Sequence record: OR776998
Source: Escherichia phage YX22
Length of the DNA: 64,000 nt
Direction: 5' to 3' (one strand)
The position numbers and the translations under genes are program-made. Under the pieces are notes generated by a model. The model did not search any database and was not told where the DNA came from. It was given only the letters and a program-made list of their open reading frames with translations. Of this stretch, positions 7,167 to 49,657 are shown in pieces (the first letter of the stretch is position 1; every line of letters begins with the position of its first letter).

Positions 7167-7195
7167 GGTACAACCCTCGGATAGTAGACGGGGCA

Positions 7196-7221: not shown

Positions 7222-7226
7222 AACTG

Positions 7227-7427: not shown

Positions 7428-7456
7428 TGCGATTTCCTCGATTAATAGAGAGGGTA

Positions 7457-7482
7457 ATGATACCTTTCGCCCCGTTATTGAA
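7457..7482 (-). promoter_or_regulatory. TTCAAT-N14-TATCAT promoter-like element
   Basis: The minus strand reads TTCAATAACGGGGCGAAAGGTATCAT upstream of the 7427 start. Confidence 0.5.
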
Positions 7483-7490
7483 ATGTTCTT

Positions 7491-26500: not shown

Positions 26501-28388
26501 CCGCATCGCGTTGACCACCGTCCAGAGTGAAGTTAGAGGTGACGTCAGCGCCATTTGCGTTCTTCACGCTGATCAGCTTGTAACCATCATGGTTCCCAAG
26601 TTGTGCGCTGGCTGTCGCAGTAAACGTCACAGTCTCGGTGGCTTCGGTAACAGTCTTGGTCTTGATCGTCGCTGTGGTGCGGACCATCAATGCCAACAGG
26701 TTGATAGACTGGTTGGCGTACCCCGCGCCCAGGGAAATCTGCAGTGCTGAACCAACCGGAGTACCAGCCAGAGACAGTCCCGAAGAGATATCAAACTGAG
26801 CTGCAGTGCCATCTGCTTTCGCTGCGGAGTACAGTGAAAACTCAGGGCTGAAGCTGTAACCCAGAGGAGCAGAAATTGAGCCTGCACCAGCAGCGTTCAA
26901 CGTGATCTTGTTTGACCGCAGGACAGTGTAGTTGATGTCGATGGTGCCTGTAGGTGCTAGAGTCTTCACACCAAATACAGGCAGAGGGAAGATCAGGTCA
27001 ATTGCTGAACTCTGACTGAACTGATTGGACTCCAGTTCGCAGGAGAACATCGTTGTACCGCTTTCTTCATAAGCGACTTTGGTAACAGTACCCATGTCCC
27101 CAGTCACAACCAGGTCGCGCATATACAGACGGAATTCAGTACCAGAGCGCTCTGCCGAAATCAGCAGGGCGGTGGCCTGCACATCGCTGGATGCGTTCAG
27201 GAACTTGTAGCGGATTGTGCGGGAGACAACCGGAACCCCTTTGGAGTTCTTGGACACCAGATAGTTGCCAGTCGAAACAGCCACAGGGTTGTTGTTCAGG
27301 ATATCAGTGTCACGGGCTTTGTCAATTATGACCAGCTCTTCGCCGAGGTTTTCGATACGACGACCACGAACGTAGGAAATGCCTGGCTTCATAACCGCCA
27401 CGAATTTGCTTTCATCACCACCTTCAGCCGGAGTGTAAACGCCGCCGTTGTTGTTCTGTTTCAGATGTTCGCGCAGGTCGATCTGGTGAGTAGAGACGTT
27501 GTAGTCACCATTGGTCTCATAGGTACGCTGAGCCATGGCGTCTTCGAGGATGTTGTACGTTGACTGGGTGACCATGGACTGAACACGACCGTCTTTCACC
27601 TTCGCCAGTTCAACGAAGTCGGCCACTTCTTCATCATAACCGTAGCGAGACAACACGAGGTCGACGCGCAGGCGATGCGCACCAGGGGCTTTAGAGTTCG
27701 GAGTACCCTGAGCATTGGAGAACAGACTTTCATCTTCTGCTTCGGTCACGATTGTTTCTGTAACTTTGAAGCCAATGCGGTGAGATGTAGAGTTCGATGC
27801 GTTGTCTACGATCAGAGTGGCTGGTTCAACATCCAGGAACATACCACGAACGAAATAAACACCCTTTGTCATGCGAGCGACAATCGAACCGCCAACAGTA
27901 TCGGCCACACCATAGCCGACACGGATGAAGTTATCGTTCACGTCATAGGTGTTGAAATATAGATTGTCGCCAGCTTCGAAACCGTCTGAACTACCACTCT
28001 CAGTCATCTCTAAGATGGCATACATTGTATCTGGCTCAGCCGGATAACGTTCCAAGGACAGGACGCGTGCTTTCGCATTGTTGTCCTTGCCCAGAACATA
28101 GAGTTCGGAGATACCTTCCAGATCAGTGAACTCACTACCACCAGCCAGAGTGAACTTCATGGACACAGCAGTGTTGGTGATCGTTAGGCCGCCGGGGATA
28201 ACCATTGAACCGTCTTTGAACAGATGGTTGCCAAGTTTCTCCAGTTGATCCTGGAAGATGGTCTGCATCTGGTTCAGTTCACGCGTCTGAACTTTGATAG
28301 GTGCCGGACGGAATAGGATGCGCGAAAAACGCTTCTCTGGATTCCAGTCATCCCAATATGGGCGGCGGTTGAGGTTCATTTCTTGCAT
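23550..28388 (-). CDS. very large virion structural protein (baseplate/fibre-associated)
   Basis: 1612 aa from the ATG at 28388 (MQEMNLNRRPYW). The N-terminus RILFRPAPIKVQTRELNQMQTIFQDQLEKLG recalls DUF4815-type phage structural proteins, from memory. Confidence 0.6.
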   Translation of the reverse strand: MQEMNLNRRPYWDDWNPEKRFSRILFRPAPIKVQTRELNQMQTIFQDQLEKLGNHLFKDGSMVIPGGLTITNTAVSMKFTLAGGSEFTDLEGISELYVLGKDNNAKARVLSLERYPAEPDTMYAILEMTESGSSDGFEAGDNLYFNTYDVNDNFIRVGYGVADTVGGSIVARMTKGVYFVRGMFLDVEPATLIVDNASNSTSHRIGFKVTETIVTEAEDESLFSNAQGTPNSKAPGAHRLRVDLVLSRYGYDEEVADFVELAKVKDGRVQSMVTQSTYNILEDAMAQRTYETNGDYNVSTHQIDLREHLKQNNNGGVYTPAEGGDESKFVAVMKPGISYVRGRRIENLGEELVIIDKARDTDILNNNPVAVSTGNYLVSKNSKGVPVVSRTIRYKFLNASSDVQATALLISAERSGTEFRLYMRDLVVTGDMGTVTKVAYEESGTTMFSCELESNQFSQSSAIDLIFPLPVFGVKTLAPTGTIDINYTVLRSNKITLNAAGAGSISAPLGYSFSPEFSLYSAAKADGTAAQFDISSGLSLAGTPVGSALQISLGAGYANQSINLLALMVRTTATIKTKTVTEATETVTFTATASAQLGNHDGYKLISVKNANGADVTSNFTLDGGQRDAAYYLSNLISSTGAISGTFTVVYQYFAHSSGDFFTADSYSSINYPDIPNYVSSSSGTVYGLADSLDFRPKITSGASDTDMVRPNTAIILDAEYYLPRIDAVYLADNGVFNVARGVSSNNLASPAIPDNGMRLYELMIPPYTANIDDIQIRTIDNRRYTMRDIGKLETRISNVEYYTSLSQLESSAMSQQVFDPITGNPRFKNGIAADPFKDFRLIDDLSADWVGSIDTDNGRLRPFVQQNAIDLTPVGWNNVQDGMVVCNYTREISVRQDYATTTINVNPYAVFNWEGFLKLNPTTDYWFENYYVTPRVINETINTRGAIKEGSVYGTWRTVSVSERVWEPHGAGGVWWGYRYRTTVSTRDVTTYTYTDKTTTTLTGEQIVETQVIPYMRKTNINFEATGLRPFTRVYPFFSGRDVSAYCTPNGGALGGALNTDANGNIKGVFAVPQNETIKFNTGDNVFRLTDSPVDSKSADDTLTNAEAVHKSFGKKQGIQKTYVNTRVLGYTATKSTENKTETVEVAKWKDPIAQSFMVATNIGGEYIEGIEVFFSTKSRDIPITLEIREMSNGLPATTVVTRKTLNPSEVSVSTDSSVPTMFKFDYPVYLQAQTEFAIVLLANTQDYNAYIAEMGKKNLLTNEFIAKQPYTGVFFTSSNGTTWTPNQTADMKFRVYRCNFSAGSNIVTFDAKVGPKIRPLGLNTVKCVNGSSTVTVYAPGHGLTAGESVTLSGLTGGCGFTPEQLNAQHTVTDATFTTFKFVLSSNADSDGQIGGEAASFLGNYLVDMFYASVTNSALEGSVLKLEYRYRDATSNSFSDWVEFESDTDVSLPTEGIYRQVGDFQVRATMTRNESNVYTAPMIDGDDFTIIFNTYGVDPFEDVFSYVTKDIGFDNPCTTLKQYFGAMLPSQSSMTVQVKLLRAGQEMDNVAWETVTPTSPLVNDGSAFFEYEYDKTVDSTNPFVGLKIRLLVRGNRIAPPSFKDFRLIALA

Positions 28389-28422
28389 TTTGATGCTCCA
28401 TCGATAGGTGCCATTATAGAGA

Positions 28423-28429
28423 TATTTAG
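28423..28429 (-). promoter_or_regulatory. late-promoter-like core CTAAATAtc
   Basis: 35 nt upstream of the 28388 ATG. Confidence 0.5.
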
Positions 28430-28445
28430 TATACAACCAACCGAG

Positions 28446-28475
28446 GAATAGAAAGAAATAAGCCCGAAGGGGCTT
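28446..28475 (-). terminator. terminator upstream of the late promoter
   Basis: The minus strand forms AAGCCC-cttc-GGGCTT followed by ATTTCTTTCT. Confidence 0.5.
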
Positions 28476-28494
28476 TGATTATCTTTCTGTGGTT

Positions 28495-28626
28495 ATGGTC
28501 ATGGATTCGAGACCTCTGCCATTCATGGTAGATGGTATTCAATTAGGTATGTTTAATATATCAGGTCAGACTATTACCTTAACTGCTGTATCGATTAGGG
28601 TAATGCAAACAGTAAACTCTATATAA
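28495..28626 (+). pseudogene. truncated paralogue of small ORF 33385..33624
   Basis: 43 codons. The last 35 align codon for codon with the 33385 ORF. Confidence 0.4.
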
Positions 28627-28650
28627 AAAGTATTATTAATAAGTAAAAAC
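28522..28650. repeat. 129-bp intergenic repeat, copy A
   Basis: Near-identical to 33520-33648. Confidence 0.85.
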
Positions 28651-28677
28651 AACCCCATAGAAGTGGGGTTGTTTTTA
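28644..28677. terminator. bidirectional terminator
   Basis: AAAAAC-AACCCCA-tagaag-TGGGGTT-GTTTTT. Confidence 0.7.
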
Positions 28678-28689
28678 AGTGATTATTAC

Positions 28690-30603
28690 TTACATAACAA
28701 CTGCGGCAGATATGTATCCTGAATCTTGATACGATCCAGAAAGGTCAAAAACTTCTAAGTTAAAAGAGTCAGGGGATGTACTTACGGCATTAATTACTAA
28801 TTTCCCTCCGCTAGTGGTATTGCCAACACTGCATAAAACAGCATAAGCAGAGGAGGGCATAGTATTAGATAGGTTGACGGTATATTTACCGGTCCCGGTT
28901 TTAGTTACAGTTGCTCCATCCGCATACACTAACGACCCCGAAATTCCATTAAAATTGATCATTGCCCGTGTACATGCACTCGACCTTTTTGCGACGGTAG
29001 ACCCAATAAATGCGTATTCTTGGGCCTTGTTAATATAAATCTTATTAACAGAAGTGTCAGGTACTTGTAAGACGTTGTCTATAACAACATTACAGGCTGT
29101 TGCTCCAGATACGGTAGAGCATCTATCTATCTCATAATTGTCGATATTAATAGCCCTTACAAAACCTATACCCCCAAATGCTGACCAGTTTTGTTTAACA
29201 AGAACACCGGAAATACCGGACAGGAAAATAAGATCGCCTGTCGTATCTTTGCTAAACGTGTTGTTGGTTATTGAAACAGAAGAAGAACGCGGTGAGTGAC
29301 TATCATCTGCAACATATACCCTGGCTAAAGAAGAAGCAGTATTCTCTTCAAAGTAGTTACCATCTACCAGTAACTGCTGTGCACCCCCGGCGACAACACC
29401 TACGTCATAGCCCGTGTTTGCTTCAAATAGAGAGTCTCTGACTATGAAATTTCGTACACTACTTGCAGTACCTGAGTCTCCGATAAGAACACCGTTAACA
29501 CCATCAAAGAAAGTACAATTATCAACTTTAACTACGTTGATATCTACCTTTGACGTTTTTACACCATTTGCACATTTAGCGAAATAGCATGAAGTTAGTT
29601 CAGCTACTCCGGAAAAATAGTCTGGGCTATCGTAATGTAAATAGACCCCATATCGAGCGTTTCTGACAACGCAATCTTGAAGTTTTAAATACCAAGCCCC
29701 ACCGAAATCAAAGCCATCAGATGATGAATCCTGGATATCCAGAAAAAGTCCAGAAATCTTAGCTCCTATCGCACCACCTTGAACCCGAATGGCGGGTGAC
29801 GCTAACCCGGTAAACTTAATTACTGAACCTGTTGTTTGGTCATTAACATGTCCAAAACTATTACCAACAATACATAGACTATCAGTGGCAGTTATGATTA
29901 AAGTAGAGCTTATAAGATAAATACCATCCGGTATGTATAAACTCTTTTTCGAATCTATTGCTGCCTGAAACGCGGCGGTATCATCGGTCACACCGTCGCC
30001 AACAGCCCCGAAGTCCTTGACTGACACCAGGTCTTTATTTTTATCATATAGTGTTCGCTTAATGGAGTTGGCCAGAGGTGACTTAAATCCGACCAGACCA
30101 GCGCCATCATCAGATGCAAGATTGATTCTCAAGGCTGCATCACCAACACTAACCCATTTGCCTAACCCAGTACCACCAGCACTTTCAGGAGTTGAGCCAG
30201 AAGAAACGGTTTTAGGTAACTCGCCATCCCAGCGATACTTACCTGTTGTATGGGTAAGCAATTCATTTTTAACATTAAGTGTAGCACCAGTGTCAAACGA
30301 CCCAGGCAATGTAACGTATTCTTCACGGGATACGGCTAATTCCCCAAGATCTATGGAACCAGCTGAATGTACAAGTACAGCATTAGTACCAAGACTTACA
30401 GCAGTAGTTCCTGCCGGAAGTACAGGTAATGAGTAAGCTCGTTGAGTAGTCTTATCGTAAATGACCTTGTAACCACCTAAGTCTACACCTACAGCAAAGT
30501 AGACTACTTCATTCTGCTTAACACCAAACTTACGGGCAATGGCTTGCTTATTGGTAAGAATACCAGTGGAGCCTTTACCACCTTGGGAGAACATCTCGTT
30601 CAT
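28690..30603 (-). CDS. tailspike, pectate-lyase-type beta-helix depolymerase
   Basis: Shared N-terminal module, then DFGAVGDGVTDDTAAFQAAIDS, the typical start of a pectate_lyase_3 tailspike. A+T-rich. Confidence 0.75.
   Translation of the reverse strand: MNEMFSQGGKGSTGILTNKQAIARKFGVKQNEVVYFAVGVDLGGYKVIYDKTTQRAYSLPVLPAGTTAVSLGTNAVLVHSAGSIDLGELAVSREEYVTLPGSFDTGATLNVKNELLTHTTGKYRWDGELPKTVSSGSTPESAGGTGLGKWVSVGDAALRINLASDDGAGLVGFKSPLANSIKRTLYDKNKDLVSVKDFGAVGDGVTDDTAAFQAAIDSKKSLYIPDGIYLISSTLIITATDSLCIVGNSFGHVNDQTTGSVIKFTGLASPAIRVQGGAIGAKISGLFLDIQDSSSDGFDFGGAWYLKLQDCVVRNARYGVYLHYDSPDYFSGVAELTSCYFAKCANGVKTSKVDINVVKVDNCTFFDGVNGVLIGDSGTASSVRNFIVRDSLFEANTGYDVGVVAGGAQQLLVDGNYFEENTASSLARVYVADDSHSPRSSSVSITNNTFSKDTTGDLIFLSGISGVLVKQNWSAFGGIGFVRAINIDNYEIDRCSTVSGATACNVVIDNVLQVPDTSVNKIYINKAQEYAFIGSTVAKRSSACTRAMINFNGISGSLVYADGATVTKTGTGKYTVNLSNTMPSSAYAVLCSVGNTTSGGKLVINAVSTSPDSFNLEVFDLSGSYQDSGYISAAVVM
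30124..30603. repeat. ~480-bp shared RBP N-module, copy 1
   Basis: Encodes ..YKVIYDKTTQRAYSLP..VSREEYVTLPGSFDTGATLNVKNELLTH..KYRWDGELPKTV... Also similar at DNA level to the other copies. Confidence 0.8.
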
Positions 30604-30660
30604 AACAACCTCTTTGTTTTTCTAGTAAACCACCCCTTATGGGGGTGGGGGAGTAGTTGA

Positions 30661-33324
30661 TTAGCTTAATGGTTTTACTTCCCATCGCTTGTCATAGTAA
30701 TGTGCAAAACCACAGTAGGATACAGACAGATGAACGATTGCATTTACTAGGCTTGCTGTAGGTAATGCAATTCTGACAAATGTTTTACCGTCACGTACCA
30801 GTTTAGTTACTGTTACCCCGGAAAGAGATTTATCACCAGCAATCATATTAGACCAGACTGCACCAGAGGCTACATTTTCCTGTGTGCTACCGGATAGCCC
30901 AAACAGAATACTGCCCCCTGATTCAGTACCAGCCAAACCATTTTTGTTAACTGGAATGATATCTGCACGCCCAGCAACGAAGCAACCATCTGGGATTTTA
31001 GTCTCTTCCCCTACAGCACAGAGAAATATATCCAAAGCCCTGTTCCATGGAACCAGTACAGTAGCTTCCTTGTGGTCAACACTCCGGAAGAACGAACTGC
31101 TATTAGAGTGAATTGCCGACAAAGTAGTGCCTGTATATGAGTTACGACCCTGTACAATATCTTCTCCATATACCCTGCCCCGGTAAAGGTTACCACGGTT
31201 ATATGTAGATATTGTGTAGGAACCATCGCTAACTTTTAAAAATTCAAAATTACTATTTAATGTAACACTACGCCCAATATACTGGTTACTTGGAGAAGTG
31301 GTATTCTCCATCAATTTGATAGCATAGTCAGAGTTAACGTAACCACTGTCAAAGATAATCCTACCAGCCTGGTACTCATTAGTAGGTAACTCAATAAAAT
31401 GAGTTACACCAGTATTCATTTTAGACTGAATCCAACAAGAAACATCTCTGAATACGATTGTTGTTTGTGCAGCAGGGGAAGCTAACTGTGAGAAGTCTAA
31501 TGCCACTGGCCCATTTATCCCTTCAATACCGAAGCCAGAGAATGAGAGGCTACGAATATCTCCATAAAATTTATGAGGTAAAATGCAACCATCTGCTGCA
31601 ATGTTGCTAGTAGCAACATACATGACAGGCAATCCATTACTGACTGGCTCATATGTAGTACGGTTAATGGCAGCTCCCCATAAAAAACCAATGTCACAAT
31701 GGTGTGCCCAAATAGATGACATATCCGTACTAGTGCTTCCATTGATACCAAAACCATAGGTACAGTCATATGCATACAAATTGGTCATAACACTAACAAA
31801 GCAAGCCATAGGCAAAGCGAACTTATAGTGGTAAAAGTCCACATCATGCACATTAAATGTCTTACCGCCACCACCTATGCCATTGCTTAAATCGAATGAA
31901 CTAATAACAAGAGGACTACCTACGTAATCAGAATCAGCATTTCGGAAAGAGAGGCGACCAATAGTAATATTGTGTCCCCATCTGGTAGAGATGAATCCAC
32001 CCTTACCTGATGTATAAATAATACTTTGTCTCTGACCAAGACCCGTAATGGATAGAGATCTGCCAGTCCAACGCTGATTGCTAATATCAATCTGTGTATC
32101 ACCAATATACATTGGTTGGGTAATTTTGATATTCAACCCATTAGCTACAGCATATGAATAGGTTGCTAACAAAGCATCCCCATCATTGTGCACACCAGTC
32201 AGGTCAGCAGCCCCCATACTTGGTGCTTTAGGATACGGACCGCCCTGAATGGTGCTGCCGTCGATATATGGGGCGTCCATCCACGCACCAAACATAGATG
32301 GGGTAACTTCGGTGCTACCACGTAAATCACGTACCCAACGTTTGCCGGATGCAGTAACAATAGTCATACCATTATCATCTGCTGATGTAACAGATGGTTT
32401 ATATACAAAATACCCGCCACCTAAATCACCGGCATTGGTTGCAATCATACCGTCAGTATGGGCTTCTACGTAAATACGTTGTTCAGCATAGGTAGGCTCA
32501 ATTGTTCGCAGTACTGCAATATTGGGGCATGTACCAATCAGCTTACTACCATCAGGCTTGCTCAGGTCTTCTCTGAGACTAGCACCAGAATTTGGGACTT
32601 CCATCAAATCTACGGTAATGTTACCTGGACTGTAGGTTAACTGACCATTAGACACAGAACTAATATAGACATTGGTCGGTAATGAAGGCAGGCCATAAAT
32701 TTTCTGAGCAGCTGCATCGAAGATAACTTTCTTGTTATCGAGTACTTGAGATGTATCCGTATTAAGAATTACCTCAGAATCTTTTACATTAGCTGAACGA
32801 GCGATTTCTTGAATACTTCGGTCAAACAACGGACTGATATTCGGTTGTTTAACAGACATTTCAGCGACTACCCAAACGCCTGCAGTCAGCGCAGTTTGTA
32901 AAGACACTTTCCCTGTCGTGCTGTCATAGGAATATTCAATTTCTGGTGTTTTGTACTCACCACCGATATAAAGAGATTGGACTCCATAAGATGTGTAATC
33001 AGGAGTGAACTCGGTTTCACCTCCTATAGCCTGAAACTTATAGATTCGAATCCCGGTTTTATAATCTTCTGGAGACAGAATCTTATCAAACAGACAGAAC
33101 ACAACGTCACCTTTGGATAATGCACACCCGAGATTCAACGTATTTCCATCGATTTCAAAGTTGTCTAACGGAACTTGCATACCACCGTTGATTGTGACTA
33201 TACCCGTGACAGGGTAGAAAGGGAGGGAGATAAACTTCTCTCCGCCCGTTGCTGTGTAAGTGTATGGAATCTGGTGCGGAGCTGTTACGACCGCTCCAAA
33301 GATGCTCTCGACGTTTCTGGTCAT
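30661..33324 (-). CDS. tailspike/receptor-binding protein with N-terminal docking domains
   Basis: 887 aa from the ATG at 33324 (MTRNVESIF). Ig-like N-terminal repeats, a weak copy of the shared module, and a large C-terminal domain. A+T-rich. Confidence 0.6.
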   Translation of the reverse strand: MTRNVESIFGAVVTAPHQIPYTYTATGGEKFISLPFYPVTGIVTINGGMQVPLDNFEIDGNTLNLGCALSKGDVVFCLFDKILSPEDYKTGIRIYKFQAIGGETEFTPDYTSYGVQSLYIGGEYKTPEIEYSYDSTTGKVSLQTALTAGVWVVAEMSVKQPNISPLFDRSIQEIARSANVKDSEVILNTDTSQVLDNKKVIFDAAAQKIYGLPSLPTNVYISSVSNGQLTYSPGNITVDLMEVPNSGASLREDLSKPDGSKLIGTCPNIAVLRTIEPTYAEQRIYVEAHTDGMIATNAGDLGGGYFVYKPSVTSADDNGMTIVTASGKRWVRDLRGSTEVTPSMFGAWMDAPYIDGSTIQGGPYPKAPSMGAADLTGVHNDGDALLATYSYAVANGLNIKITQPMYIGDTQIDISNQRWTGRSLSITGLGQRQSIIYTSGKGGFISTRWGHNITIGRLSFRNADSDYVGSPLVISSFDLSNGIGGGGKTFNVHDVDFYHYKFALPMACFVSVMTNLYAYDCTYGFGINGSTSTDMSSIWAHHCDIGFLWGAAINRTTYEPVSNGLPVMYVATSNIAADGCILPHKFYGDIRSLSFSGFGIEGINGPVALDFSQLASPAAQTTIVFRDVSCWIQSKMNTGVTHFIELPTNEYQAGRIIFDSGYVNSDYAIKLMENTTSPSNQYIGRSVTLNSNFEFLKVSDGSYTISTYNRGNLYRGRVYGEDIVQGRNSYTGTTLSAIHSNSSSFFRSVDHKEATVLVPWNRALDIFLCAVGEETKIPDGCFVAGRADIIPVNKNGLAGTESGGSILFGLSGSTQENVASGAVWSNMIAGDKSLSGVTVTKLVRDGKTFVRIALPTASLVNAIVHLSVSYCGFAHYYDKRWEVKPLS

Positions 33325-33330
33325 TTGAAG

Positions 33331-33404
33331 ATACCCCATAGAGGATTTGCCAATATGGGGTATTTAGTCTGAACTAATAAATTTATGAACAAAGGTATAA
33401 CAAG
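33331..33404. repeat. ~74-bp promoter/leader repeat, copy A
   Basis: Matches 36708-36780 with a 1-nt indel. It includes the late motif and the first 20 nt of the small plus-strand ORF. Confidence 0.8.
33361..33367 (-). promoter_or_regulatory. late-promoter-like core CTAAATAcccc
   Basis: Forms a 10-bp inverted repeat (33331-40 with 33354-63) that spans the promoter and the RBS. Confidence 0.55.
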
Positions 33405-33624
33405 GAGAACCAATGGAACTACAATAGTAGGTTCAGATGCCAGTACCAAAGTTCAGGGTGTAGATATAGCCAACAGGGATAACGTTTTAGCTACTTACAC
33501 ACTAGGTTCAGCAGACCCTTTCATGGTGGATGGTATACAGTTAGGTATGTTCAACATATCAGGTCAGACTATTACCTTAACTGCTGTATCAGTAAGGGTA
33601 ATGCAAACAGTAAACTCTATATAA
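33385..33624 (+). CDS. small conserved protein antisense to the tailspike operon
   Basis: 79 aa. Against the partial copy at 28522-28626, 7 codons differ and 6 of those are synonymous third-position changes in this frame. Confidence 0.6.
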   Translation: MNKGITRRTNGTTIVGSDASTKVQGVDIANRDNVLATYTLGSADPFMVDGIQLGMFNISGQTITLTAVSVRVMQTVNSI

Positions 33625-33648
33625 AAAGTATTATTAATAAGTAAAAAC
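33520..33648. repeat. 129-bp intergenic repeat, copy B
   Basis: Near-identical to 28522-28650. Confidence 0.85.
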
Positions 33649-33676
33649 TAACCCCGCCGAAGCGGGGTTTTGTTTA
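33643..33676. terminator. bidirectional terminator
   Basis: AACCCCGC-cgaa-GCGGGGTT with A- and T-tracts on either side. Confidence 0.7.
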
Positions 33677-36600
33677 TTACTTCTGTTCAAGAGCAGAAAG
33701 TCTGGCTTCGATTCTTTCCAGTTTTCTTCGCTGATAAGCAGCTTCAGCAAAGAAAATTCCGTCAGGCCGCACGCCCCACTCCTCACCCTCTTCGTGAATA
33801 ACCACCTCAGTGAATACAGGCTCTTCCGTGGTGGTGACATTACCCTCCTCGTCAGTGTGTTCAACGATTTCATTGTGCGAAAATACCATATCGGTCATCC
33901 GTGGATACTTGTCATAGCACAGAACGGCATAACGACAATCCGTACTGTTTTCGTCCATCAGACCATGTGCAATGAATACATCACGAATTTGCTGAGCAAT
34001 AACCCCGAAGTGAATACGAGCTTCATTGCCTTTCAGTTGAACAGCATCTAACCACTGGTACATGATGTAGTGAACGTCACCCCAGGCATCCAGGAAAGCA
34101 TCATCAAAAACTACCGGCTCCGTTTTCTTCTCTCCGTTAGAAGTAACAATAGGGTTGCTTCCGAGGTATGCAGTGGTGAAACGGTTGCTGGGCCCACCAA
34201 GAGCAATAGCGTTATCGTTATAAGGCTTAACATCAGCAGTCTGGAACAGGTGCTCAGCTCCGTTGTAAACTATCCTGCGAGAAGCTGTGTTATTCGCACC
34301 GTAAAGCGTAATCTGTGCACCAGTAGAAGAACTGGTTCCTTCTCCACCGCAAAATATGGTGCGCTGTCCTGCTGGGTTATTAGTAGGTACAGATTTCCCA
34401 ATAAACCCATACTCGCCTTCCAGTAGCATTTCAGAGCGAATGTTATTACTGGTGCTGGCCCTAAGGGTCACATGACCTAAACCCAAATCTCCTGTAAATT
34501 CCATTGGCGCAGGGACAGTGCGAACCCCATTCGTATCAAAAAACACGGGAACAGCTCTGTCAGGTACAGCACCATATCTGAAATCCCTGGAAACACGATT
34601 GTCTGGGCCAATCTTCATTTTGTAGCAATACAAATCTGAGGGATGACCATCTGATTTGAATGGGTCTTTCGCTGAGTTATCTCCATATGTCCAGGGGTTC
34701 AGATGGTCTTCCCCACCGAACATGTAATAGATATAACTATCCTTAACAACCACTGAGCCAACACCGACTCCAGAGTTGACAATACCGCCCTGATAAATCT
34801 GGTCAGTGATATTCACCCACTGAGTATTATCCAGGTTCCAGGTGTCTAGGTTCACTCGCGTGTAGAACGTTCGTGGATAAGAAGTAAAGTATCGTTGATC
34901 AGGTACATTGGCTTCCCATTCGTTATCAGCACGCTCTGTGGCGAAAATGATTAGTTCATTACCGACTTTAGCGAACGGCAACGTAGAGTGGTGAACATTA
35001 TTAGGAAATCTGAGTGATTCCCAAGTCATGCCCAAATCATGACTACGATGCAACGAACTCCCCAAACGATCTGAACGAGTACCACGAGTTAAGACATAAA
35101 GAACGCCATCAAAATATTTAACGCAAGGCTCTGCCGCATCAGGTTCATAATCAGCAGGAATACGACGTTTTTGGTATAAACCCGGGTTATTAAACGCATC
35201 CGGGAAATACAACATGCCAACTTCACGAGGAGCAACATCACCTTGGTGATACCCCATCATGAATGAATCATTATTGATGGCGGTAAAACTATGAACTTCA
35301 GTCACCATTGGGATTAACCCAAGGCTGGTTTTACGCCACGGCGACTCATGGAACGATGTACCCATATGCCAACGGCTGGTAGAATTATTTTGGTCAAACG
35401 CCTGTTGATTTGGCGTGGTAACTGTGAAAGTGTTGCGGTCAATAACTGAAGTTACAGTCATATTCCCTGAAACTCCAGTCACCCCAGAGTTTGAGAAGTT
35501 AACAAAATCCCCAGCAAAAAGACCGTGTTCAGGGATAGTAATTACAGCCACAGGCTGGTTGGCGGCTTTAGTGATACCGCCTGTCGGATGGTAGTTACGG
35601 GACATGGGGCGATCCCACAACTCACAGGTTACCAGTGCGTTAGATGCCAATGTACGGGTCTCAATCATCGCAAAGAGACGATTACGCATCACCCCCATAC
35701 TCATGCAGTGGTAGTTAACTGTCGGATAGTCAGGATGTAGGTCGGTTAACCACTCCGGGGTTGTCCAGGTCTGTCCGTCATCCCCTGAACGAACCCAGGA
35801 TACATGCAGCCTGCTAACCCCATGTCTATCACTAGCCATGAACGGACAGTAAATAACATCGTCGTAAACGAACGCTTTATCTTGTGGCCACGCATTGTAA
35901 TAAGGGGTGTCCGTTATTTTGAACAGCTCGCCCTGAACAAATTCTTCAGAGGCATAATAAAGCGGCTGACCAGGAATACGCTCATAAACAAAACGAGTGT
36001 TGACGAATCGACTAATGTCAGGCAAGGATGTGACCTTATATGTCTTCCCATTGCCATTAATTTTCTGACCAACTGGTGCGGCGTTTAATACGCCATTAAG
36101 CGCTGAGGTGTCATCGGTGACCCCATCACCTTTTGCATTCCACCCGCGCGGGTCGAATGTGTCTCTCCATCTTGCGATCTGCAAATCTGGATATTTTGTT
36201 GCGCCATCAGGGTCAGAAAGCTGGCTTCTTAATGAAGCATCACCAACACTAACCCATGCACCAGTTCCAGTGCCACCAGTACTCCCAGGAGTTGAACCAG
36301 CTGGAACTGTTTTAGGGAATTCACCCTCCCAACGATACTTACCCGCTACATGAGTAAGGAGTTCATTTTTAACATTAAGTGTAGCACCAGTATCAAACGA
36401 CCCAGGTAAAGTCACATATTCTTCGCGACTTACGGCTAACTCCCCAAGGTCTACAGAACCAGCCGAATGAGCGAGGATTGCCTGTTCGTTCAGACTAACA
36501 GCAGTCGTTCCTGAAACAATACCTGAAGGAAGAGAATAAGCCCGTTGGGTAGACTCATCATAAATTACTTTAAATCCACTGAGATCAATACCAGCAGTGA

Positions 36601-36703
36601 AATAAACGACTTCGTCTTCTTTGACACCGAAATTTCGAGCGATAGATTGTTTGTTAACTTCTATGGAAGTGGAGCCGCGTGGTTGATTGAATTGAGAAAT
36701 CAT
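33677..36703 (-). CDS. endosialidase tailspike (endo-N-acylneuraminidase) with C-terminal intramolecular chaperone
   Basis: Long stretches match K1F endoNF as I remember it: HGVSRLHVSW..SGDDGQTW, GTRSDRLGSSLHRS, YLGSNPIVTSNGEKKTEPVVFDDAFLDAWGDVHYIMYQWLDAVQLKG, ..RKLERIEARLSALEQK. Confidence 0.9.
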   Translation of the reverse strand: MISQFNQPRGSTSIEVNKQSIARNFGVKEDEVVYFTAGIDLSGFKVIYDESTQRAYSLPSGIVSGTTAVSLNEQAILAHSAGSVDLGELAVSREEYVTLPGSFDTGATLNVKNELLTHVAGKYRWEGEFPKTVPAGSTPGSTGGTGTGAWVSVGDASLRSQLSDPDGATKYPDLQIARWRDTFDPRGWNAKGDGVTDDTSALNGVLNAAPVGQKINGNGKTYKVTSLPDISRFVNTRFVYERIPGQPLYYASEEFVQGELFKITDTPYYNAWPQDKAFVYDDVIYCPFMASDRHGVSRLHVSWVRSGDDGQTWTTPEWLTDLHPDYPTVNYHCMSMGVMRNRLFAMIETRTLASNALVTCELWDRPMSRNYHPTGGITKAANQPVAVITIPEHGLFAGDFVNFSNSGVTGVSGNMTVTSVIDRNTFTVTTPNQQAFDQNNSTSRWHMGTSFHESPWRKTSLGLIPMVTEVHSFTAINNDSFMMGYHQGDVAPREVGMLYFPDAFNNPGLYQKRRIPADYEPDAAEPCVKYFDGVLYVLTRGTRSDRLGSSLHRSHDLGMTWESLRFPNNVHHSTLPFAKVGNELIIFATERADNEWEANVPDQRYFTSYPRTFYTRVNLDTWNLDNTQWVNITDQIYQGGIVNSGVGVGSVVVKDSYIYYMFGGEDHLNPWTYGDNSAKDPFKSDGHPSDLYCYKMKIGPDNRVSRDFRYGAVPDRAVPVFFDTNGVRTVPAPMEFTGDLGLGHVTLRASTSNNIRSEMLLEGEYGFIGKSVPTNNPAGQRTIFCGGEGTSSSTGAQITLYGANNTASRRIVYNGAEHLFQTADVKPYNDNAIALGGPSNRFTTAYLGSNPIVTSNGEKKTEPVVFDDAFLDAWGDVHYIMYQWLDAVQLKGNEARIHFGVIAQQIRDVFIAHGLMDENSTDCRYAVLCYDKYPRMTDMVFSHNEIVEHTDEEGNVTTTEEPVFTEVVIHEEGEEWGVRPDGIFFAEAAYQRRKLERIEARLSALEQK
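36224..36703. repeat. shared RBP N-module, copy 2
   Basis: Same module as 30124-30603. Confidence 0.8.
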
Positions 36704-36707
36704 GATA

Positions 36708-36780
36708 ATACCCCATAAAGGATGACCAATATGGGGTATTTAGGCTGAACTAATAAATTTATGAACAAAGGTATAACAAG
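36708..36780. repeat. promoter/leader repeat, copy B
   Basis: Matches 33331-33404. Only the first 20 nt of the small plus-strand ORF survive here. Confidence 0.8.
36737..36743 (-). promoter_or_regulatory. late-promoter-like core CTAAATAcccc
   Basis: Forms an 11-bp inverted repeat (36707-17 with 36730-40). Confidence 0.55.
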
Positions 36781-36801
36781 AACCCTGCCGAAGAGGGGGT
36801 T
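36781..36801 (-). terminator. degenerate stem-loop after the 993-aa gene
   Basis: AACCC...GGGTT, at the position where the other cassettes have terminators. Confidence 0.35.
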
Positions 36802-36805
36802 AGTT

Positions 36806-39787
36806 TTACGGGTAAGCACTCTCGAACTTACAGAACCAAGTCGTTCCTCCATCAGTTGTTGACAACCTAAAAACTTGTGTTCCAGCTGCTGTCAAAGATG
36901 GGGTACTACTTGCTAATATAACATTTGCACCAAATGTTATTGTTTTAGATGTTGTTGAATAGACAGCCAAAAGAACCTCAACATAACCAATTAGTGTATT
37001 TGTTAATACTGCTGGAGTTATTGTTACATCTCCTGTAACTGTAGCTGCGATGTAAGATGCGTCTGAAAAGTCAGGCGCATAACTTGCTGTTGGCGTCTCG
37101 AACTTTGGATTTCTTACCAATACAGGAACTCCAACATTTTTCCTGAAAATTGTACTATTGCAAACCATATCATACTCTATACCAACAAAATTCTTAGCTG
37201 CGAGTATGTTAGTAAATGTCTGGTCCGCAGAGTAAATATGAGTTATCAGCCTTGCCACCCATGCTGGTGAGTTTGAGTTTTCACACTCAATGAATGAGCA
37301 GTTGGTACTACCAACAGCGAATGGCATTAATGATGCCGTATATGAAGATAGCCCTGCGTCATTGAATGCATTCATATTCACAAAAGTCTGGCATTGAGAG
37401 AACGTATTACCGGTGGCTCCACCATCAATAAAAAAGCCAATCCCGCCGTTAATATAACCATCTACAGGATCTAAATTAGCTTTCGTGTAGTCCCATTTTG
37501 ATGGAGAATCTGCAAAACATTGATTGAAGGAATTGTTTATTGAGTTCTGTACAACAAAGCAGCATTTCATCCTTGAGTTCTGGTCAGTGACTGTATCGTC
37601 ATACATGCCCCAGTTGTGCACCTTACCAATTCTGTTATTACCACCACCACGAACCCAGGTACCAAATCGGAAATAACGACCTTCACCCATGCTAACCTGA
37701 TGATCGCTACCTTCAACAATGTGGGCTGTGCTGAGCGGATTAGTTGGTTTTAATACACCAACAGCATAAAACTTCAATAGGTGCACACCCATACCGCCAG
37801 CAATATGGATGCCATGACCATCAACGTTGGCTACGTAAATGCCTTCTAACTTGTTAGCATAGCCATCGGATATCTTAAACCCATTAACAGTTTTTGCACG
37901 GGCATCAATTAATAAGTTGCTGATATGCCCAGCGTATTGATTACCCGTCCCTTTATCGCATTTAACAGCATAGCCAGAGGAGTCTGCAACGAAGTCATCG
38001 GTGAGGTACACCCCACCGAAACCAGCATCAATGCTAACATCTCCGTGAATGTGTAGTGTCGTACTGATAGGATATTTCTTCCCATTCAGCCTGATAACTT
38101 TGCTTACAGTGTTAGGTTGTAGCCAGTCAGGATGGTTAGCAGCACTACTTGGTGCATGTTCTAAACCTGTTAAAGCTGCCGCAGCATCAATCGCATCCTG
38201 TAATGATGGATACATATCCGGGTTGACATTTATAATTTTCTTAAGCGCATTGCCAACAGTACCAGTTTCGTAATCAATTGACTTATCAAAACCTGAAAAA
38301 CCTGCTCCTGTAGGTTTAGCCAATTCTGACTTCAATGAAGCATCACCAACACTAATCCATGCGCCAACACCAACGCCGCCTGTTGTCATAAGAGTTGAGC
38401 CAGGAGCAACGGTTTTAGGAAGTGTACCATCCCAACGATACTTTCCATCAGTATGGGTGAGTAATTCATTTTTAACATTGATGACAGCACCAGAATCAAA
38501 TGTCCCAGACAATGTAACATATTCTTCACGAGATACAGCCAATTCCCCGAGATCTACAGAACCCGCTGAATGCACAAGTACAGCGGAAGAACTAAGACTG
38601 ACAGCAGTAGTACCAGGGACAATATCAGCAGGCAAGGGATAAGCCCTTTGCGTCTCCTTGTCATAAATAACTTTATACCCACTTAACGCAGCACCAACAC
38701 TAAAATAAACGACCTCTGTATCTTTAACATTGGTTACACGAGCAACTTCCCGCAAAGTATAATCAATTTGATTATAGATGTTTGGTGTTCCATTGATAAT
38801 TACAACAACTTCATCCTCTGGTTCCAGTTCTTGCGCAAGAGTGATTTTACTGGTTAATGGATCGAATGTGAATCCCAGATTTTTATACTGGCGACTTCCG
38901 TTTATATCAATGGCCGGAACATCATCAACAACGACGTCCAACGTGATTTCGGTTTCACCGCCAATCGCTGAACCCCCATTATAGACCCAGGTAATCGTAG
39001 AAGAACTAGAACCACCGCCATTACCCAATTGAATAGGAGTATATTCAATCACCTGAAGTTCTGTGTTGGCTGGCAAAGAAGGGCTGAAAGTGATTACATT
39101 CCCATCTAGTGAATATTTGGATTCCGCAAGACGTTTTCCGTCAGCATACACGTCCACGATTGTTGGTGGGGTATTGAGAGCGACAGTACTTGTTTCAGAC
39201 GCCAAAATTTTTGTAAAGATTTCACGACTGTAGACGCGACCTTGGCCAAGACCGACGCCGGATGTAATAATCCAACCTTGTTCAGGTCCAGACCAAGTGA
39301 ACGTTGCTGATACGTTATCAGTTGTTATAGCCATGTCTTCAGTGGAGCCATACAAATTATTTCCAGAAGGAGACACAGTCAATGGGTAAGTGGCAAATTT
39401 CCCATAAGCATCACAAATAGTAACGGAATCCCCAATACGCGTAGGGGAAGGGAGAACCACTGTAGATGCCCCTGTGGTATTATTAATGAGATAGCCTCGC
39501 CCTTCAGTGAGCGTTGCCGTAGAGGCATGCGGAAGGACTTCCCAGCGGATACCACCGCCACCCAGCGGCAACCATCCACCATTTTCATAGAAGCCCTCAA
39601 ATTCGTCGGAGTCGGCATTGTAGCGAACGGAAGACGGGAGTCCTGCGCTGGCATTACCCTCGGGTAAAGTCAGGACAGCATCTGGTCCATGCTCAATCGT
39701 ACCCGTGTTGAGGAGACCAGCCAAAGTAGACTGCTCTTCAGCCGCCAGACCGAGAGGGAAAACAGGCTGTGTTGGTTTATTAGCCAT
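36806..39787 (-). CDS. tailspike/branching receptor-binding protein
   Basis: 993 aa from the ATG at 39787 (MANKPTQP). Fibre-type N-terminus (VRYNADSDEFEGFYENGGW), Ig-like repeats, an internal copy of the shared module, and a C-terminal enzyme-like domain. Confidence 0.7.
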   Translation of the reverse strand: MANKPTQPVFPLGLAAEEQSTLAGLLNTGTIEHGPDAVLTLPEGNASAGLPSSVRYNADSDEFEGFYENGGWLPLGGGGIRWEVLPHASTATLTEGRGYLINNTTGASTVVLPSPTRIGDSVTICDAYGKFATYPLTVSPSGNNLYGSTEDMAITTDNVSATFTWSGPEQGWIITSGVGLGQGRVYSREIFTKILASETSTVALNTPPTIVDVYADGKRLAESKYSLDGNVITFSPSLPANTELQVIEYTPIQLGNGGGSSSSTITWVYNGGSAIGGETEITLDVVVDDVPAIDINGSRQYKNLGFTFDPLTSKITLAQELEPEDEVVVIINGTPNIYNQIDYTLREVARVTNVKDTEVVYFSVGAALSGYKVIYDKETQRAYPLPADIVPGTTAVSLSSSAVLVHSAGSVDLGELAVSREEYVTLSGTFDSGAVINVKNELLTHTDGKYRWDGTLPKTVAPGSTLMTTGGVGVGAWISVGDASLKSELAKPTGAGFSGFDKSIDYETGTVGNALKKIINVNPDMYPSLQDAIDAAAALTGLEHAPSSAANHPDWLQPNTVSKVIRLNGKKYPISTTLHIHGDVSIDAGFGGVYLTDDFVADSSGYAVKCDKGTGNQYAGHISNLLIDARAKTVNGFKISDGYANKLEGIYVANVDGHGIHIAGGMGVHLLKFYAVGVLKPTNPLSTAHIVEGSDHQVSMGEGRYFRFGTWVRGGGNNRIGKVHNWGMYDDTVTDQNSRMKCCFVVQNSINNSFNQCFADSPSKWDYTKANLDPVDGYINGGIGFFIDGGATGNTFSQCQTFVNMNAFNDAGLSSYTASLMPFAVGSTNCSFIECENSNSPAWVARLITHIYSADQTFTNILAAKNFVGIEYDMVCNSTIFRKNVGVPVLVRNPKFETPTASYAPDFSDASYIAATVTGDVTITPAVLTNTLIGYVEVLLAVYSTTSKTITFGANVILASSTPSLTAAGTQVFRLSTTDGGTTWFCKFESAYP
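38327..38755. repeat. shared RBP module, copy 3 (internal)
   Basis: Residues ~355-497 of the ORF: ..YKVIYDKETQRAYPLP..VSREEYVTLSGTFDSGAVINVKNELLTH..KYRWDGTLPKTV.. Confidence 0.8.
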
Positions 39788-39824
39788 TTCAAATACCCCT
39801 AAATGTGTTCGTTTCATCTAGGGG

Positions 39825-39831
39825 TATTTAG
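39825..39831 (-). promoter_or_regulatory. late-promoter-like core CTAAATAcccc
   Basis: Forms an 11-bp perfect inverted repeat (39791-801 with 39819-29). Confidence 0.55.
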
Positions 39832-39839
39832 TTTTCACT

Positions 39840-41030
39840 TTAGAAAGAAGCTACAATAGAATAATCGACCGAACAAGCAGTTGTTGTATTCGCATTAACA
39901 ACGGAAATTCTCAATTTACCGCCCACCACAGCCCCTGTGAACGTCACTGTACCGCTCGTACTTTTCTGAACCAACAACTCCGATTTGATCGTTCCGTCGC
40001 GAGTTATAGTTACTCGATATGTATCAACAACGTCACCTGTTCCCCATTGCGCGGTCACCAGTATTTGACAAAGGTTCACCAAATCAAAATCTGGAAGAGC
40101 CGTCGTCCCAGAAGCCGAAACCGTGTAAGAAGACAAATTCGTTTTGGTACGATAAACGGCGTTCCCTAAACTATTGTCGACAGAGGTCATCTTGGCATTA
40201 TACGTTGATACATTAACTTTATCACTGGAAAGAGAACTGATGCTGTTATCCAGAGATGTCATCTTCGTGTTGTACGTGCTGACCTCGACTTTATTACCCA
40301 GAGACGTATTGATATTGGAGATACTCAAATCCAACGATGCCATCTTAGTGTTGTAAGTCGATGTGTTGACTTTCCCGTTCAACGACGTGTTGATGCCATT
40401 AATCTGGGACTCTAGACTCAGCATATCTGCGTCATACGCTGTCGTTGTCACATATCCACCAAATCGGTTATCTGCAAACAACGCATCAAAAAATGCAGTC
40501 ATTGTCCAATAACGCGCTCCAGAATCTGTTTGTACTGGAATTGAAGTCGGCAGTGTTGATCCGGTATACGCAGACAATCTGGTGAAGTCCAAATTGAATT
40601 TGTAATATCCGGATGCCAACAACTCCCCAGCCAAACCAGAACCAGGTGGGGTAGTGTCTTCACTGACACCATGCTTTCTCAGCATGCTCAGGTTAACACC
40701 ATCTGTCGCTACCACAGGCTCATCCACGATAGACAGTTTCTTTCCAGCCGGAACAGTCAGGCCGCCGTTGGCTGTCAACAACGCAGCAAAAGTCTTGTTC
40801 CCGTTGATCGTTTGTTCACCACCGTCGGTGCGGATCACTTTGTTTTCCAGTGTGTCGTAGATATTATCCACAGAACGCTTCAGCTCGTATGTCAAATGAG
40901 CTGAAGGAGGGAACAACGGATCATCAACAGCGAAATCGTTGACAACATCAGTCTTGCTTATTTTATCGTCAACAGAAGAAAGGATTGCATCAATCTGCTG
41001 ACCTGTGTATCGACTCAGAAAATCGGCCAT
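39840..41030 (-). CDS. tail fibre protein
   Basis: Fibre-like N-terminus (..EQTINGNKTF..LTANGGLTVPAGKKLSI..) and VSTYNxKMxSLDxS repeats. Confidence 0.7.
   Translation of the reverse strand: MADFLSRYTGQQIDAILSSVDDKISKTDVVNDFAVDDPLFPPSAHLTYELKRSVDNIYDTLENKVIRTDGGEQTINGNKTFAALLTANGGLTVPAGKKLSIVDEPVVATDGVNLSMLRKHGVSEDTTPPGSGLAGELLASGYYKFNLDFTRLSAYTGSTLPTSIPVQTDSGARYWTMTAFFDALFADNRFGGYVTTTAYDADMLSLESQINGINTSLNGKVNTSTYNTKMASLDLSISNINTSLGNKVEVSTYNTKMTSLDNSISSLSSDKVNVSTYNAKMTSVDNSLGNAVYRTKTNLSSYTVSASGTTALPDFDLVNLCQILVTAQWGTGDVVDTYRVTITRDGTIKSELLVQKSTSGTVTFTGAVVGGKLRISVVNANTTTACSVDYSIVASF
40170..40400. repeat. three degenerate tandem repeats (~72-81 bp) inside the fibre gene
   Basis: Units begin near 40188, 40260 and 40341 (catcttNgNgttgtaNgt...). 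They encode V(N/E)xSTYN(T/A)KM(A/T)S(L/V)D. Confidence 0.6.
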
Positions 41031-41032
41031 TT

Positions 41033-43649: not shown

Positions 43650-43688
43650 GATAATCTCCATCACCTGAGTTTGAATATGGTGTTGAAG

Positions 43689-43695
43689 ATATTTA
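43689..43695 (-). promoter_or_regulatory. late-promoter-like core CTAAATAtc
   Basis: 40 nt upstream of the 43649 ATG. Confidence 0.5.
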
Positions 43696-43708
43696 GCCAA
43701 CGGGAATC

Positions 43709-47223: not shown

Positions 47224-47442
47224 AATTACGGGCGTGACTTCCTGAAGAGTTAGAAGATGTGCATGTCGACTCTCTCTCGTAATCGGGGTGTTTAGGAAGT
47301 TAAGAAAATCGCGGCGAGGATAGTGAAATGCAAATAGCTTTCTCTACGTCGACGACTTCAGGTTCGACTCCTGACGCGCTCTCCCATAGGGTAGTACCAG
47401 TGCAAGCGTGTAGTCTTTCAACCCATCCCATCGATGTGGTGT

Positions 47443-49617: not shown

Positions 49618-49624
49618 CTAAATA
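49618..49624 (+). promoter_or_regulatory. late-promoter-like core CTAAATAccccc (plus strand)
   Basis: 34 nt upstream of the 49658 ATG. It is the only plus-strand member. Confidence 0.5.
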
Positions 49625-49657
49625 CCCCCATATGGCTAACCCACTGAGGAACCCAAC

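Follow-up and report, generated by a model that had tools for sequence, protein, structure and literature searches.

How a phage that carries several tailspike genes side by side comes to replace one of them, and whether a whole gene or a part of it is replaced, is the question raised by positions 28437-39831 of Escherichia phage YX22 (sequence record OR776998; the whole analysed stretch of 64,000 nucleotides (nt) is referred to as the window). Four receptor-binding genes lie there, with two pairs of repeats between them. A preliminary description of the region proposed self-contained cassettes, each with its own late motif and downstream terminator, that are swapped by recombination at conserved linkers. 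The genes are at the coordinates given in that description and both repeat pairs are real. However our analysis points to a cluster that diversifies by replacement of the C-terminal receptor-binding module of each gene, and we think that this account, taken as a whole with what we say below on the linkers, is probably correct.

The four tailspike genes

The region is the known branched four-tailspike host-recognition cluster of an Aglimvirinae/Agtrevirus-like Ackermannviridae phage. It has four long open reading frames (ORFs) on the minus strand, all of them for tailspike proteins (TSPs), in the order TSP4-TSP3-TSP2-TSP1 (genes A, B, C and D).

36806-39787, minus strand, TSP4 (gene A): conserved N-terminal part 38334-39787 (XD/anchor domains and Tail_spike_N), variable receptor-binding module 36806-38333
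33677-36703, minus strand, TSP3 (gene B): conserved N-terminal anchor 36227-36703, imported endosialidase and S74 chaperone module 33677-36226
30661-33324, minus strand, TSP2 (gene C): conserved N-terminal part about 32600-33324, variable module 30661-32600
28690-30603, minus strand, TSP1 (gene D): conserved N-terminal anchor 30130-30603, variable pectate-lyase-fold module 28690-30129

TSP4 and TSP2 both have the N-terminal XD (T4 gp10-like) hub domain by which these two types are recognised: residues 1-338 of TSP4 match PDB entries 7REJ/7RFO (E 2e-196) and residues 1-349 of TSP2 match 6W4Q (E 5e-143), which we take to be the XD regions of CBA120 TSP4 and TSP2. Residues 344-507 of TSP4 also match CBA120 TSP4 (PDB 5W6H), and TSP2 also matches TSP2 entry 5W6P. 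The ORF of TSP4 opens at 39817 and its homologues start at 39787. TSP1 matches CBA120 TSP1 (PDB 4OJ5, E 5e-87) and TSP3, as well as G7C gp63.1 (4QNL, E 3e-60). The TD1/Tail_spike_N anchor is common to TSP1, TSP3 and TSP4, with Tail_spike_N (Pfam PF18668) at residues 427-492 of TSP4 and 90-155 of both TSP3 and TSP1, and the motif GTTAVSL is present in TSP1.

What is exchanged

The two repeat pairs, called linkers in the preliminary description, are both far beyond chance. Linker 1 pairs 28522-28650 with 33520-33648 (121/129 identical, 93.8%, gapless), and linker 2 pairs 33331-33404 with 36708-36780 (69/74 identical, 93.2%, one gap), with similarity stopping sharply at both ends of linker 2. With 12 kb across the region as query, matches were obtained in 338 phage records (Kuttervirus and Agtrevirus for the most part), and at most 42% of the region was covered by any one record. 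A coverage profile was built from the syntenic matches of 20 relatives, in which the denominator varies by segment.

28672-30125, C-terminal module of TSP1: covered by 0/11 relatives
30649-32587, C-terminal module of TSP2: covered by 1/17
32960-33368, N-terminal part of TSP2 and inner linker 2: covered by 20/20
33405-36226, linker 1 copy at TSP3 (scar copy 2 below), terminator and C-terminal module of TSP3: covered by 0/19
36227-36801, N-terminal part of TSP3 and linker 2 copy 2: covered by 6-14/19
36809-38320, C-terminal module of TSP4: covered by 1/19

Coverage begins again at 30130 and at 38334. On the upstream side the breakpoints fall inside the coding sequences, near codon 158 in TSP1 and TSP3, codon 484 in TSP4 and codons 120-240 in TSP2 (positions 30130, 36227, 38334 and about 32600-32960), just after the anchor/Tail_spike_N domains. 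On the downstream side they coincide with the outer edge of linker 2 or with that of the spacer between TSP2 and TSP1. At the outer edge of linker 2 copy 1, coverage goes from 20/20 (32960-33368) to 11/19 at 33404 and 0/19 from 33405, and at the edge of copy 2 it goes from 8-14/19 to 1/19 at 36802-36809. Linker 1 is within the exchanged part, being found downstream of TSP1 in 6/11 relatives and downstream of TSP3 in 0/19. The genes thus have the conserved N-terminal and variable C-terminal parts expected of Ackermannviridae tailspikes, and the swapped unit is the C-terminal module plus terminator, with the linker 1 segment where present, and not the whole cassette. Linker 2 is the upstream end of a conserved block comprising promoter, untranslated region (UTR) and N-terminal anchor domain. 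Linker 2 and the N-terminal anchor domains of the next gene form the conserved recombination arms, and what is replaced between them is a C-terminal module and its terminator, sometimes with hitch-hiking DNA.

A direct repeat of 283 nt with 78% identity, at 30129-30411, 36229-36511 and 38332-38614, codes in TSP1, TSP3 and TSP4 for the anchor region with Tail_spike_N. The intragenic exchange breakpoints fall at the downstream end of this repeat, which could also mediate deletions or moves from slot to slot within the genome.

The alternative nearest to the preliminary description is that whole genes are swapped as self-contained cassettes at dedicated intergenic linkers. There are indeed exchange boundaries at the outer edge of linker 2 (33404/33405 and 36801-36808), so that the finding named in advance as fatal to the proposal, related genomes with no exchange boundaries at the linkers, was not made among the 20 relatives. 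Phage fGh-Ecl02 shares the whole of TSP2 (93% identity over 30224-33368), with one boundary at 33368 inside linker 2, and whole-gene exchange has been achieved experimentally in S117 (PMC11414711). However the upstream boundaries are intragenic in 16-20 relatives, linker 2 continues unbroken into the conserved N-terminal coding block, and linker 1 is missing from most relatives and is foreign to the locus, as discussed below. If the cassette were the unit most replacements should start at the promoter element, and the survey found the opposite.

Nor does each gene have the two signals that a cassette would need. The motif CTAAATACCCC is upstream of TSP4 (39821-39831), TSP3 (36733-36743) and TSP2 (33357-33367), and is enriched in the window, with 8 matches at up to one mismatch (6 exact) where 0.55 are expected. 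There is none upstream of TSP1, where there is no more than a spacer of 57 bp containing a Shine-Dalgarno sequence.

30604-30660, minus strand, spacer between TSP2 and TSP1: moderate stem-loop and the AAAGAGG Shine-Dalgarno sequence of TSP1, no promoter motif, shared with Gamaleyavirus and Phapecoctavirus

Strong terminators follow TSP3 (-19.5 kcal/mol) and TSP1 (-19.2 kcal/mol). That after TSP2 is moderate or borderline (-14.1 kcal/mol, z -2.5, poor U-tract), and the stem after TSP4 (-5.9 kcal/mol, z -0.2) is no different from shuffled sequence, which leaves TSP4 with no convincing terminator. The claim of a motif and a terminator for every gene therefore holds for three motifs and two strong terminators, and that of swapping at conserved linkers holds for the mosaic nature of the locus, for the boundaries at the edge of linker 2 and for a crossover in linker 1 described below, but not for the exchange of whole genes. 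Taken together we regard whole-cassette exchange as unlikely.

Linker 1 and the orf14 fragments

Linker 1 is a foreign gene fragment carried in with a swapped module and not a conserved linker. The copies extend over 28519-28656 and 33517-33654, and we refer to the segments in which they lie as scars.

28519-28689, unstranded, scar copy 1: bidirectional terminator 28644-28677 (-19.2 kcal/mol) and orf14 3' fragment, codons 174-208, plus strand, 28519-28626
33405-33676, unstranded, scar copy 2: bidirectional terminator 33650-33669 (-19.5 kcal/mol) and orf14 3' fragment, codons 135-208, plus strand, 33400-33624
28437-28518, minus strand, older scar: what is left of a former TSP1 of the vB_CECAV_050 type, namely its stop and last 13 codons (28479-28518), and a small terminator 28460-28475 before the VriC-like gene

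A plus-strand ORF of 79 amino acids (aa) at 33385-33624 matches positions 136-207 of 208 in phrog_17779 (E 3e-36), and tblastn finds orf14 codons 135-208 in copy 2 and 174-208 in copy 1. Full-length orf14 (208 aa) was found in podophages only, chiefly in 70-76 kb Gamaleyavirus (G7C/Bp4/UE-S5b-like) genomes, and in 3/3 Gamaleyavirus loci examined the Bp4 orf14 gene is convergent with the distal gp63.1-type tailspike gene. Linker 1 is the 3' end of this gene of an N4-like podophage, hitch-hiking DNA from a position facing the donor's distal tailspike gene. The YX22 segments have the marks of a remnant, namely homology to a part only of a gene found intact elsewhere, a native start that is missing and a variable 5' truncation, and the fragment has frameshifts in SKML-39 and fGh-Ecl02. 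Each scar copy also carries one of the two strong bidirectional terminators of the cluster. The orf14 protein itself has no Pfam family and only a marginal PDB match (E 0.0035, Dec-like decoration protein); in Gamaleyavirus records the gene (7572-8225) is annotated as 'tail needle knob', 'protease' or hypothetical.

The junctions have short microhomologies, AACAAG, AAAACC and GACCTC(C/T)GC. Scar copy 2 is joined to linker 2 at AACAAG and to TSP3 at AAAACC. Homology to orf14 starts at 33399, exactly at the end of linker 2, and AACAAG is present in both sequences, so the ATG of the 79-aa ORF is best seen as an accident of the fusion. We also considered that this ORF is an internally deleted orf14 with its own start. 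That reading was rejected because homology begins only at 33399, with the ATG within linker 2, and linker 2 ends in the same way in its other copy.

The module on the other side of scar copy 2 is also of podophage type. After a TSP3-type N-terminus, gene B has the full K1F-type endosialidase domain set and S74 chaperone (Pfam, E 1e-204), and 33666-36092 has 91% nucleotide identity to the proximal spike of Gamaleyavirus UE-S5b/PBM-3. All 48 of the 48 phage records with this module are from outside the Ackermannviridae (Gamaleyavirus 91%, IME392 87.5%, K1F 82.7%). A K1F-type endosialidase was not found in any Ackermannviridae record searched and is never mentioned in a 2024 review of the family, and gene B may represent a new TSP3 subtype that would confer tropism for the K1 capsule. 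The module (33666-36092) is joined at AAAACC to the terminator and orf14 segment, and by comparison with UE-S5b it looks as though the distal K5-lyase gene of a similar donor had been precisely removed. Searches of IMG/VR, JGI metagenomes and E. coli genomes gave no match to the unique junction of linker 2 and orf14.

TSP1 has similar connections. Its module is 90.7% identical to a spike of Phapecoctavirus dw-ec (6655-8554), in which the next spike in tandem begins MNEMFSQGGKG behind the same CTAGAAAAACAAxGAGGTT spacer, and its N-terminus and ribosome-binding site (RBS) spacer are shared by Gamaleyaviruses at 81-87%. The TSP1-type N-terminus and spacer are thus common to three phage families.

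History of the scars

The older scar, which adjoins the VriC-like gene and consists of the final codons of a TSP1 of the vB_CECAV_050 type, is kept in every Aglimvirinae genome that bears a scar. RPN242, PC3 and SKML-39 have one common junction with orf14 (…GACCTCCGC joined to ATTCTTCAGG…), and LHE287 (about 3530-3760) has about 230-250 nt more of the old TSP1 before the same junction. In fGh-Ecl02, and in the window together with CAU_YEP3, there are nested further deletions at short repeats. The truncations form a nested series, all built on a single ancestral junction, with an N-terminal truncation point that varies from codon 122 to 174, and the common junction and nested deletions indicate a single ancestral capture downstream of TSP1. 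The copy on the TSP3 side is a second capture, as its junction is a different one, a longer part of orf14 is left in it and it runs on into the podophage module. There were thus at least two captures of the fragment by microhomology-mediated joining, an ancestral one downstream of TSP1, and one downstream of TSP3 that is unique to YX22 and came with the endosialidase module. Successive replacements by microhomology (GACCTC(C/T)GC) have left the scars in layers.

The scars differ mutually, with synonymous divergence (pS) of about 0.45-0.57 and a ratio of non-synonymous to synonymous divergence (pN/pS) of 0.07-0.11, which is the ratio of intact orf14 genes too (0.13-0.21). A neutral pattern, with pN/pS near 1, would be expected of a pseudogene and was not found. 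We read the low value as the outcome of repeated replacement from functional donors and not as evidence of function. There are also signs of mosaicism. Between LHE287 and RPN242 the divergence is only 1.4% for the flank as against 16.7% for the scar (p = 0.0005), although within the scar alone the comparison is not significant (p = 0.08). The window and CAU_YEP3 have their deletion junction in common and different terminator types, and differ at 2/120 positions left of 28556 and 14/73 to the right (local Fisher test, p = 3e-5), which places a crossover in scar copy 1 near 28543-28557. The max-chi-square breakpoint for the same pair over a long stretch is inside the VriC-like gene and not in the scar. 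Two terminator types are shuffled among the scars. These comparisons are read most simply if the first capture was followed by imports of modules from donors with a functional orf14, with crossovers inside the scar, and the synonymous-dominated divergence and mosaic breakpoints suggest that the scar was reused as a homology arm with podophage donors.

The similarity of the two linker 1 copies has another possible source, namely that a TSP1-type cassette and its scar were duplicated into the TSP3 slot, or that gene conversion made the copies alike, the copies being otherwise inert pseudogene DNA. The copies are 92-94% identical, both have a terminator context of the UE-S5b type, and TSP1 and TSP3 share the N-terminal block of 78% identity that could mediate such a move. 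However copy 2 retains codons 135-208 and copy 1 only 174-208, with a different junction, so that copy 2 cannot come from copy 1. In addition the copy 1 junction is shared with CAU_YEP3, while copy 1, copy 2 and LHE287 are about equidistant. The differences between the copies are 8 synonymous and 1 non-synonymous, which is not neutral decay, and copy 2 runs on at AAAACC into a Gamaleyavirus-type endosialidase module. Duplication or conversion is thus very unlikely to account for the pair.

The least probable explanation that we considered is that the fragment is a functional small gene, or some other element under selection (an antisense ORF, for example, or a module for bidirectional termination) that is kept for its usefulness. 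The intact ORFs (79 aa from ATG, 33385-33624; 45 aa from GTG, 28489-28626), the pN/pS of about 0.1, the fact that both strong terminators of the cluster belong to scars and the annotation as a coding sequence in fGh-Ecl02 have to be set against an ATG made by the fusion to linker 2 and lacking a Shine-Dalgarno sequence, a truncation point that moves between codons 122 and 174, frameshifts in two genomes, absence from most family members and a position antisense to, and downstream of, a terminator. The coding sequence annotated in fGh-Ecl02 is of 47 aa and described as 'similar to protease', and the fragment is unannotated in the other records.

Linker 2 and the hairpin leaders

Hundreds of Ackermannviridae records contain linker 2 (75-80 nt) at about 94% identity, in most cases twice per genome, and the inner part can still be recognised in Klebsiella and Dickeya phages of the family. 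Linker 2 is directly upstream of TSP3 and TSP2 in 20/20 relatives, with a diverged version upstream of TSP4. This distribution marks it as a putative family-wide promoter/5'-UTR element.

33325-33404, minus strand, linker 2 copy 1: motif 33357-33367, hairpin 3' arm with Shine-Dalgarno-like GGGG 9 nt before the ATG at 33324
36704-36805, minus strand, linker 2 copy 2 and stem: linker 36704-36780, motif 36733-36743, hairpin, and weak stem-loop after the TSP4 stop 36781-36805
39788-39835, minus strand, TSP4 upstream element, a diverged linker 2 paralogue: CTAAATACCCC at 39821-39831, hairpin, conserved in all relatives

In each leader CTAAATACCCC is the 5' arm of a hairpin of 10-16 bp, or 10-11 bp in linker 2 itself (-16.3 kcal/mol, z -4.3, in copy 1; -19.6, z -5.1, in copy 2; -21.0, z -8.4, in the TSP4 element), and the 3' arm has GGGGTAT 7-9 nt before the start codon, a Shine-Dalgarno-like spacing. 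TSP2 has an in-frame upstream ATG at 33339, within the hairpin arm, and the spacing from GGGG to ATG supports 33324 and not 33339 as its start. Among 18 distinct leader variants 94% of cells pair, as against 33-58% with the partner slid, and between the paralogues there are compensatory changes at two pairs adjoining the invariant core (AU/UA/CG and UA/AU/UG).

A promoter motif in the 5' arm and a Shine-Dalgarno sequence in the 3' arm of a stable stem-loop is the arrangement of T4 genes e, soc, 49 and I-TevI, in which the late promoter encodes the 5' strand of a stem that sequesters the RBS, and only transcripts begun at that promoter within the stem are translated efficiently (PMC3014915). 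By analogy we infer that linker 2 works as do the T4 gene e, soc and 49 leaders, a predicted form of translational control. The hairpin would sequester the RBS, only transcripts from the gene's own promoter would be translated well, and the leader would insulate each gene from whatever terminator a swapped upstream module brings.

CTAAATACCCC has been listed as a regulatory motif of the family (PMC7283392), and the label 'late' rests on that listing together with the resemblance of CTAAATA to the T4-type TATAAATA. The latter has two matches only in 64 kb, none of them upstream of a tailspike gene, and is not enriched. A scan for sigma-70 promoters was uninformative (19 sites, and 28.8 in shuffled sequence). 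Further CTAAATACCCC sites are at 1838-1848 (minus), 5035-5045 (minus) and 49618-49628 (plus), with a one-mismatch variant at 47285-47295 (minus). That at 5035 has a 12-bp promoter/RBS hairpin ahead of a 242-aa protein without known function. Of the genes at these other sites only a helicase is functionally annotated, and it is non-structural, so they do not confirm the 'late' label.

If our account is right, podophage tailspike modules could be captured repeatedly by homologous recombination, with the resident scar as the arm on the downstream side and the gp63.1-type N-terminal domain, which is shared, as the arm on the upstream side. One may go further and see the orf14 fragment and gp63.1-type domain as a cross-family 'landing pad' for modules of N4-like podophages, with hairpin-insulated slots. 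We offer this import-prone non-coding architecture only tentatively, as a possibility that we do not expect to be the more probable outcome.

Several observations have to be set against these interpretations. The sample of scar-bearing genomes is small, at 8. The best Gamaleyavirus match is 83-87% in scar copy 2 and 91% in the endosialidase module, and the donor is not among the sampled genomes. The synonymous-dominated divergence could alternatively mean that the fragment is still translated and selected, and the jump in divergence could come from homogenisation of the flank and not from replacement of the scar. With regard to the leaders, the core hairpin pairs are invariant and hence silent on pairing, and the covariation is at only two pairs and is between paralogous elements, not within one. 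No hairpin is present at two of the 6 exact motif sites, that at 1838 ahead of a DNA helicase and that at 49618 ahead of a protein of 152 aa without known function. Finally, 'late promoter' and 'translational insulation' are terms taken from sequence and analogy.

Comparison with known systems

The preliminary description gave phi92 as the reference for a multi-spike adsorption apparatus, but CBA120 and Det7 (Ackermannviridae) and G7C (Gamaleyavirus) are a better fit. Phages of the phi92/rV5 type also have several different spikes per virion, and the Phapecoctavirus dw-ec shares the TSP1 module, N-terminus and spacer. However they belong to another family with another baseplate attachment, while the synteny and flanks of YX22 are those of Ackermannviridae.

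CBA120 (TSP1-4, orf210-213), Det7 (gp206-209) and S117 likewise have four tandem tailspike genes between baseplate and VriC-like genes. Exchange of receptor-binding modules via conserved 5' ends has been proposed and shown experimentally, and similarity to G7C-like spikes at the protein level has been published (PMC8432352, PMC11414711). YX22 differs in that its TSP3 carries a K1F-type endosialidase, and in that its breakpoints fall behind the Tail_spike_N domain instead of at GTTAVSL, the motif that had been proposed. The terms 'intergenic', 'promoter' (in this sense), 'pseudogene' and 'endosialidase' are absent from the Ackermannviridae papers compared, including PMC8432352 and PMC11414711, and for this reason the promoter-in-hairpin element and the orf14 scars seem to be undescribed details, and not a new kind of system.

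The two-tailspike module of Gamaleyavirus (G7C/Bp4/UE-S5b) has gp66-like and gp63.1-like spikes with a convergent orf14, and YX22 resembles it at the DNA level in the gp63.1-type N-terminal domain, the distal-spike RBS spacer, the endosialidase module, the terminator and the orf14 3' end. In contrast to YX22, which keeps codons 135-208 and 174-208 only, orf14 is full length there (208 aa), and YX22 has four spikes on a myovirus baseplate and lacks the distal K5-lyase gene of UE-S5b.

In the case of the T4 leaders the likeness is in the promoter motif in the 5' strand and the RBS in the 3' strand just before the start codon (PMC3014915). The motif in YX22 is CTAAATACCCC and not TATAAATA, and its leaders precede structural genes that lie behind other late genes, whereas the T4 gene is one that needs early silencing. 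The system cited in PMC11414711 in which host-range modules are exchanged also recombines at short conserved segments flanking hypervariable parts; YX22 differs in that one of its homology arms would be a pseudogene fragment of another phage family, first captured by microhomology.

Our results add modest new detail to a known system and leave the accepted picture unchanged. Prediction and engineering of host range already make use of the swapping of tailspikes in Ackermannviridae. To this we add natural breakpoints at base resolution, after Tail_spike_N and at the outer edge of the conserved promoter/UTR element, which offer design rules for chimeric phages as to the position of junctions and the choice of non-coding elements to be retained. 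The donor-gene scar, microhomology joins and synonymous-dominated divergence are physical evidence for N4-like podophages as recurrent donors, the locus shows a K1 endosialidase in an Ackermannviridae TSP3 slot, and there is now a testable idea to explain the retention, by each spike, of a promoter of its own within a hairpin that sequesters the RBS. If the landing pad and insulation were both true, an imported module, whatever its terminator, would leave expression of the next spike unchanged, and the non-coding architecture would be a previously undescribed one that is both tolerant of import and prone to it.

Flanks and composition of the locus

Upstream of the cluster are a baseplate wedge gene (phrog_219, 41871-43700) and a conserved gene of 396 aa (39840-41030), and downstream is the DUF4815/VriC-like gene (23550-28436, 1628 aa). 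The placement between baseplate genes (39840-43700) and VriC-like gene is the synteny of Det7 and Agtrevirus, and the flanks are 97-98% identical to vB_CECAV_050 (Agtrevirus), LHE287 and fGh-Ecl02. The cluster of LHE287 has three annotated tailspike genes only.

The greater A+T-richness of the tailspike genes, as noted in the preliminary description, is borne out by a GC check. The TSP segments have a GC content of 0.41-0.47 and a GC content at third codon positions (GC3) of 0.32-0.41, as against an average of 0.491 (sd 0.023) for 1.5-kb windows outside the region and a GC3 of 0.59 in the neighbouring VriC-like gene. TSP3 is the least A+T-rich tailspike gene, as that description had implied, and the conserved N-terminal parts are likewise A+T-rich.

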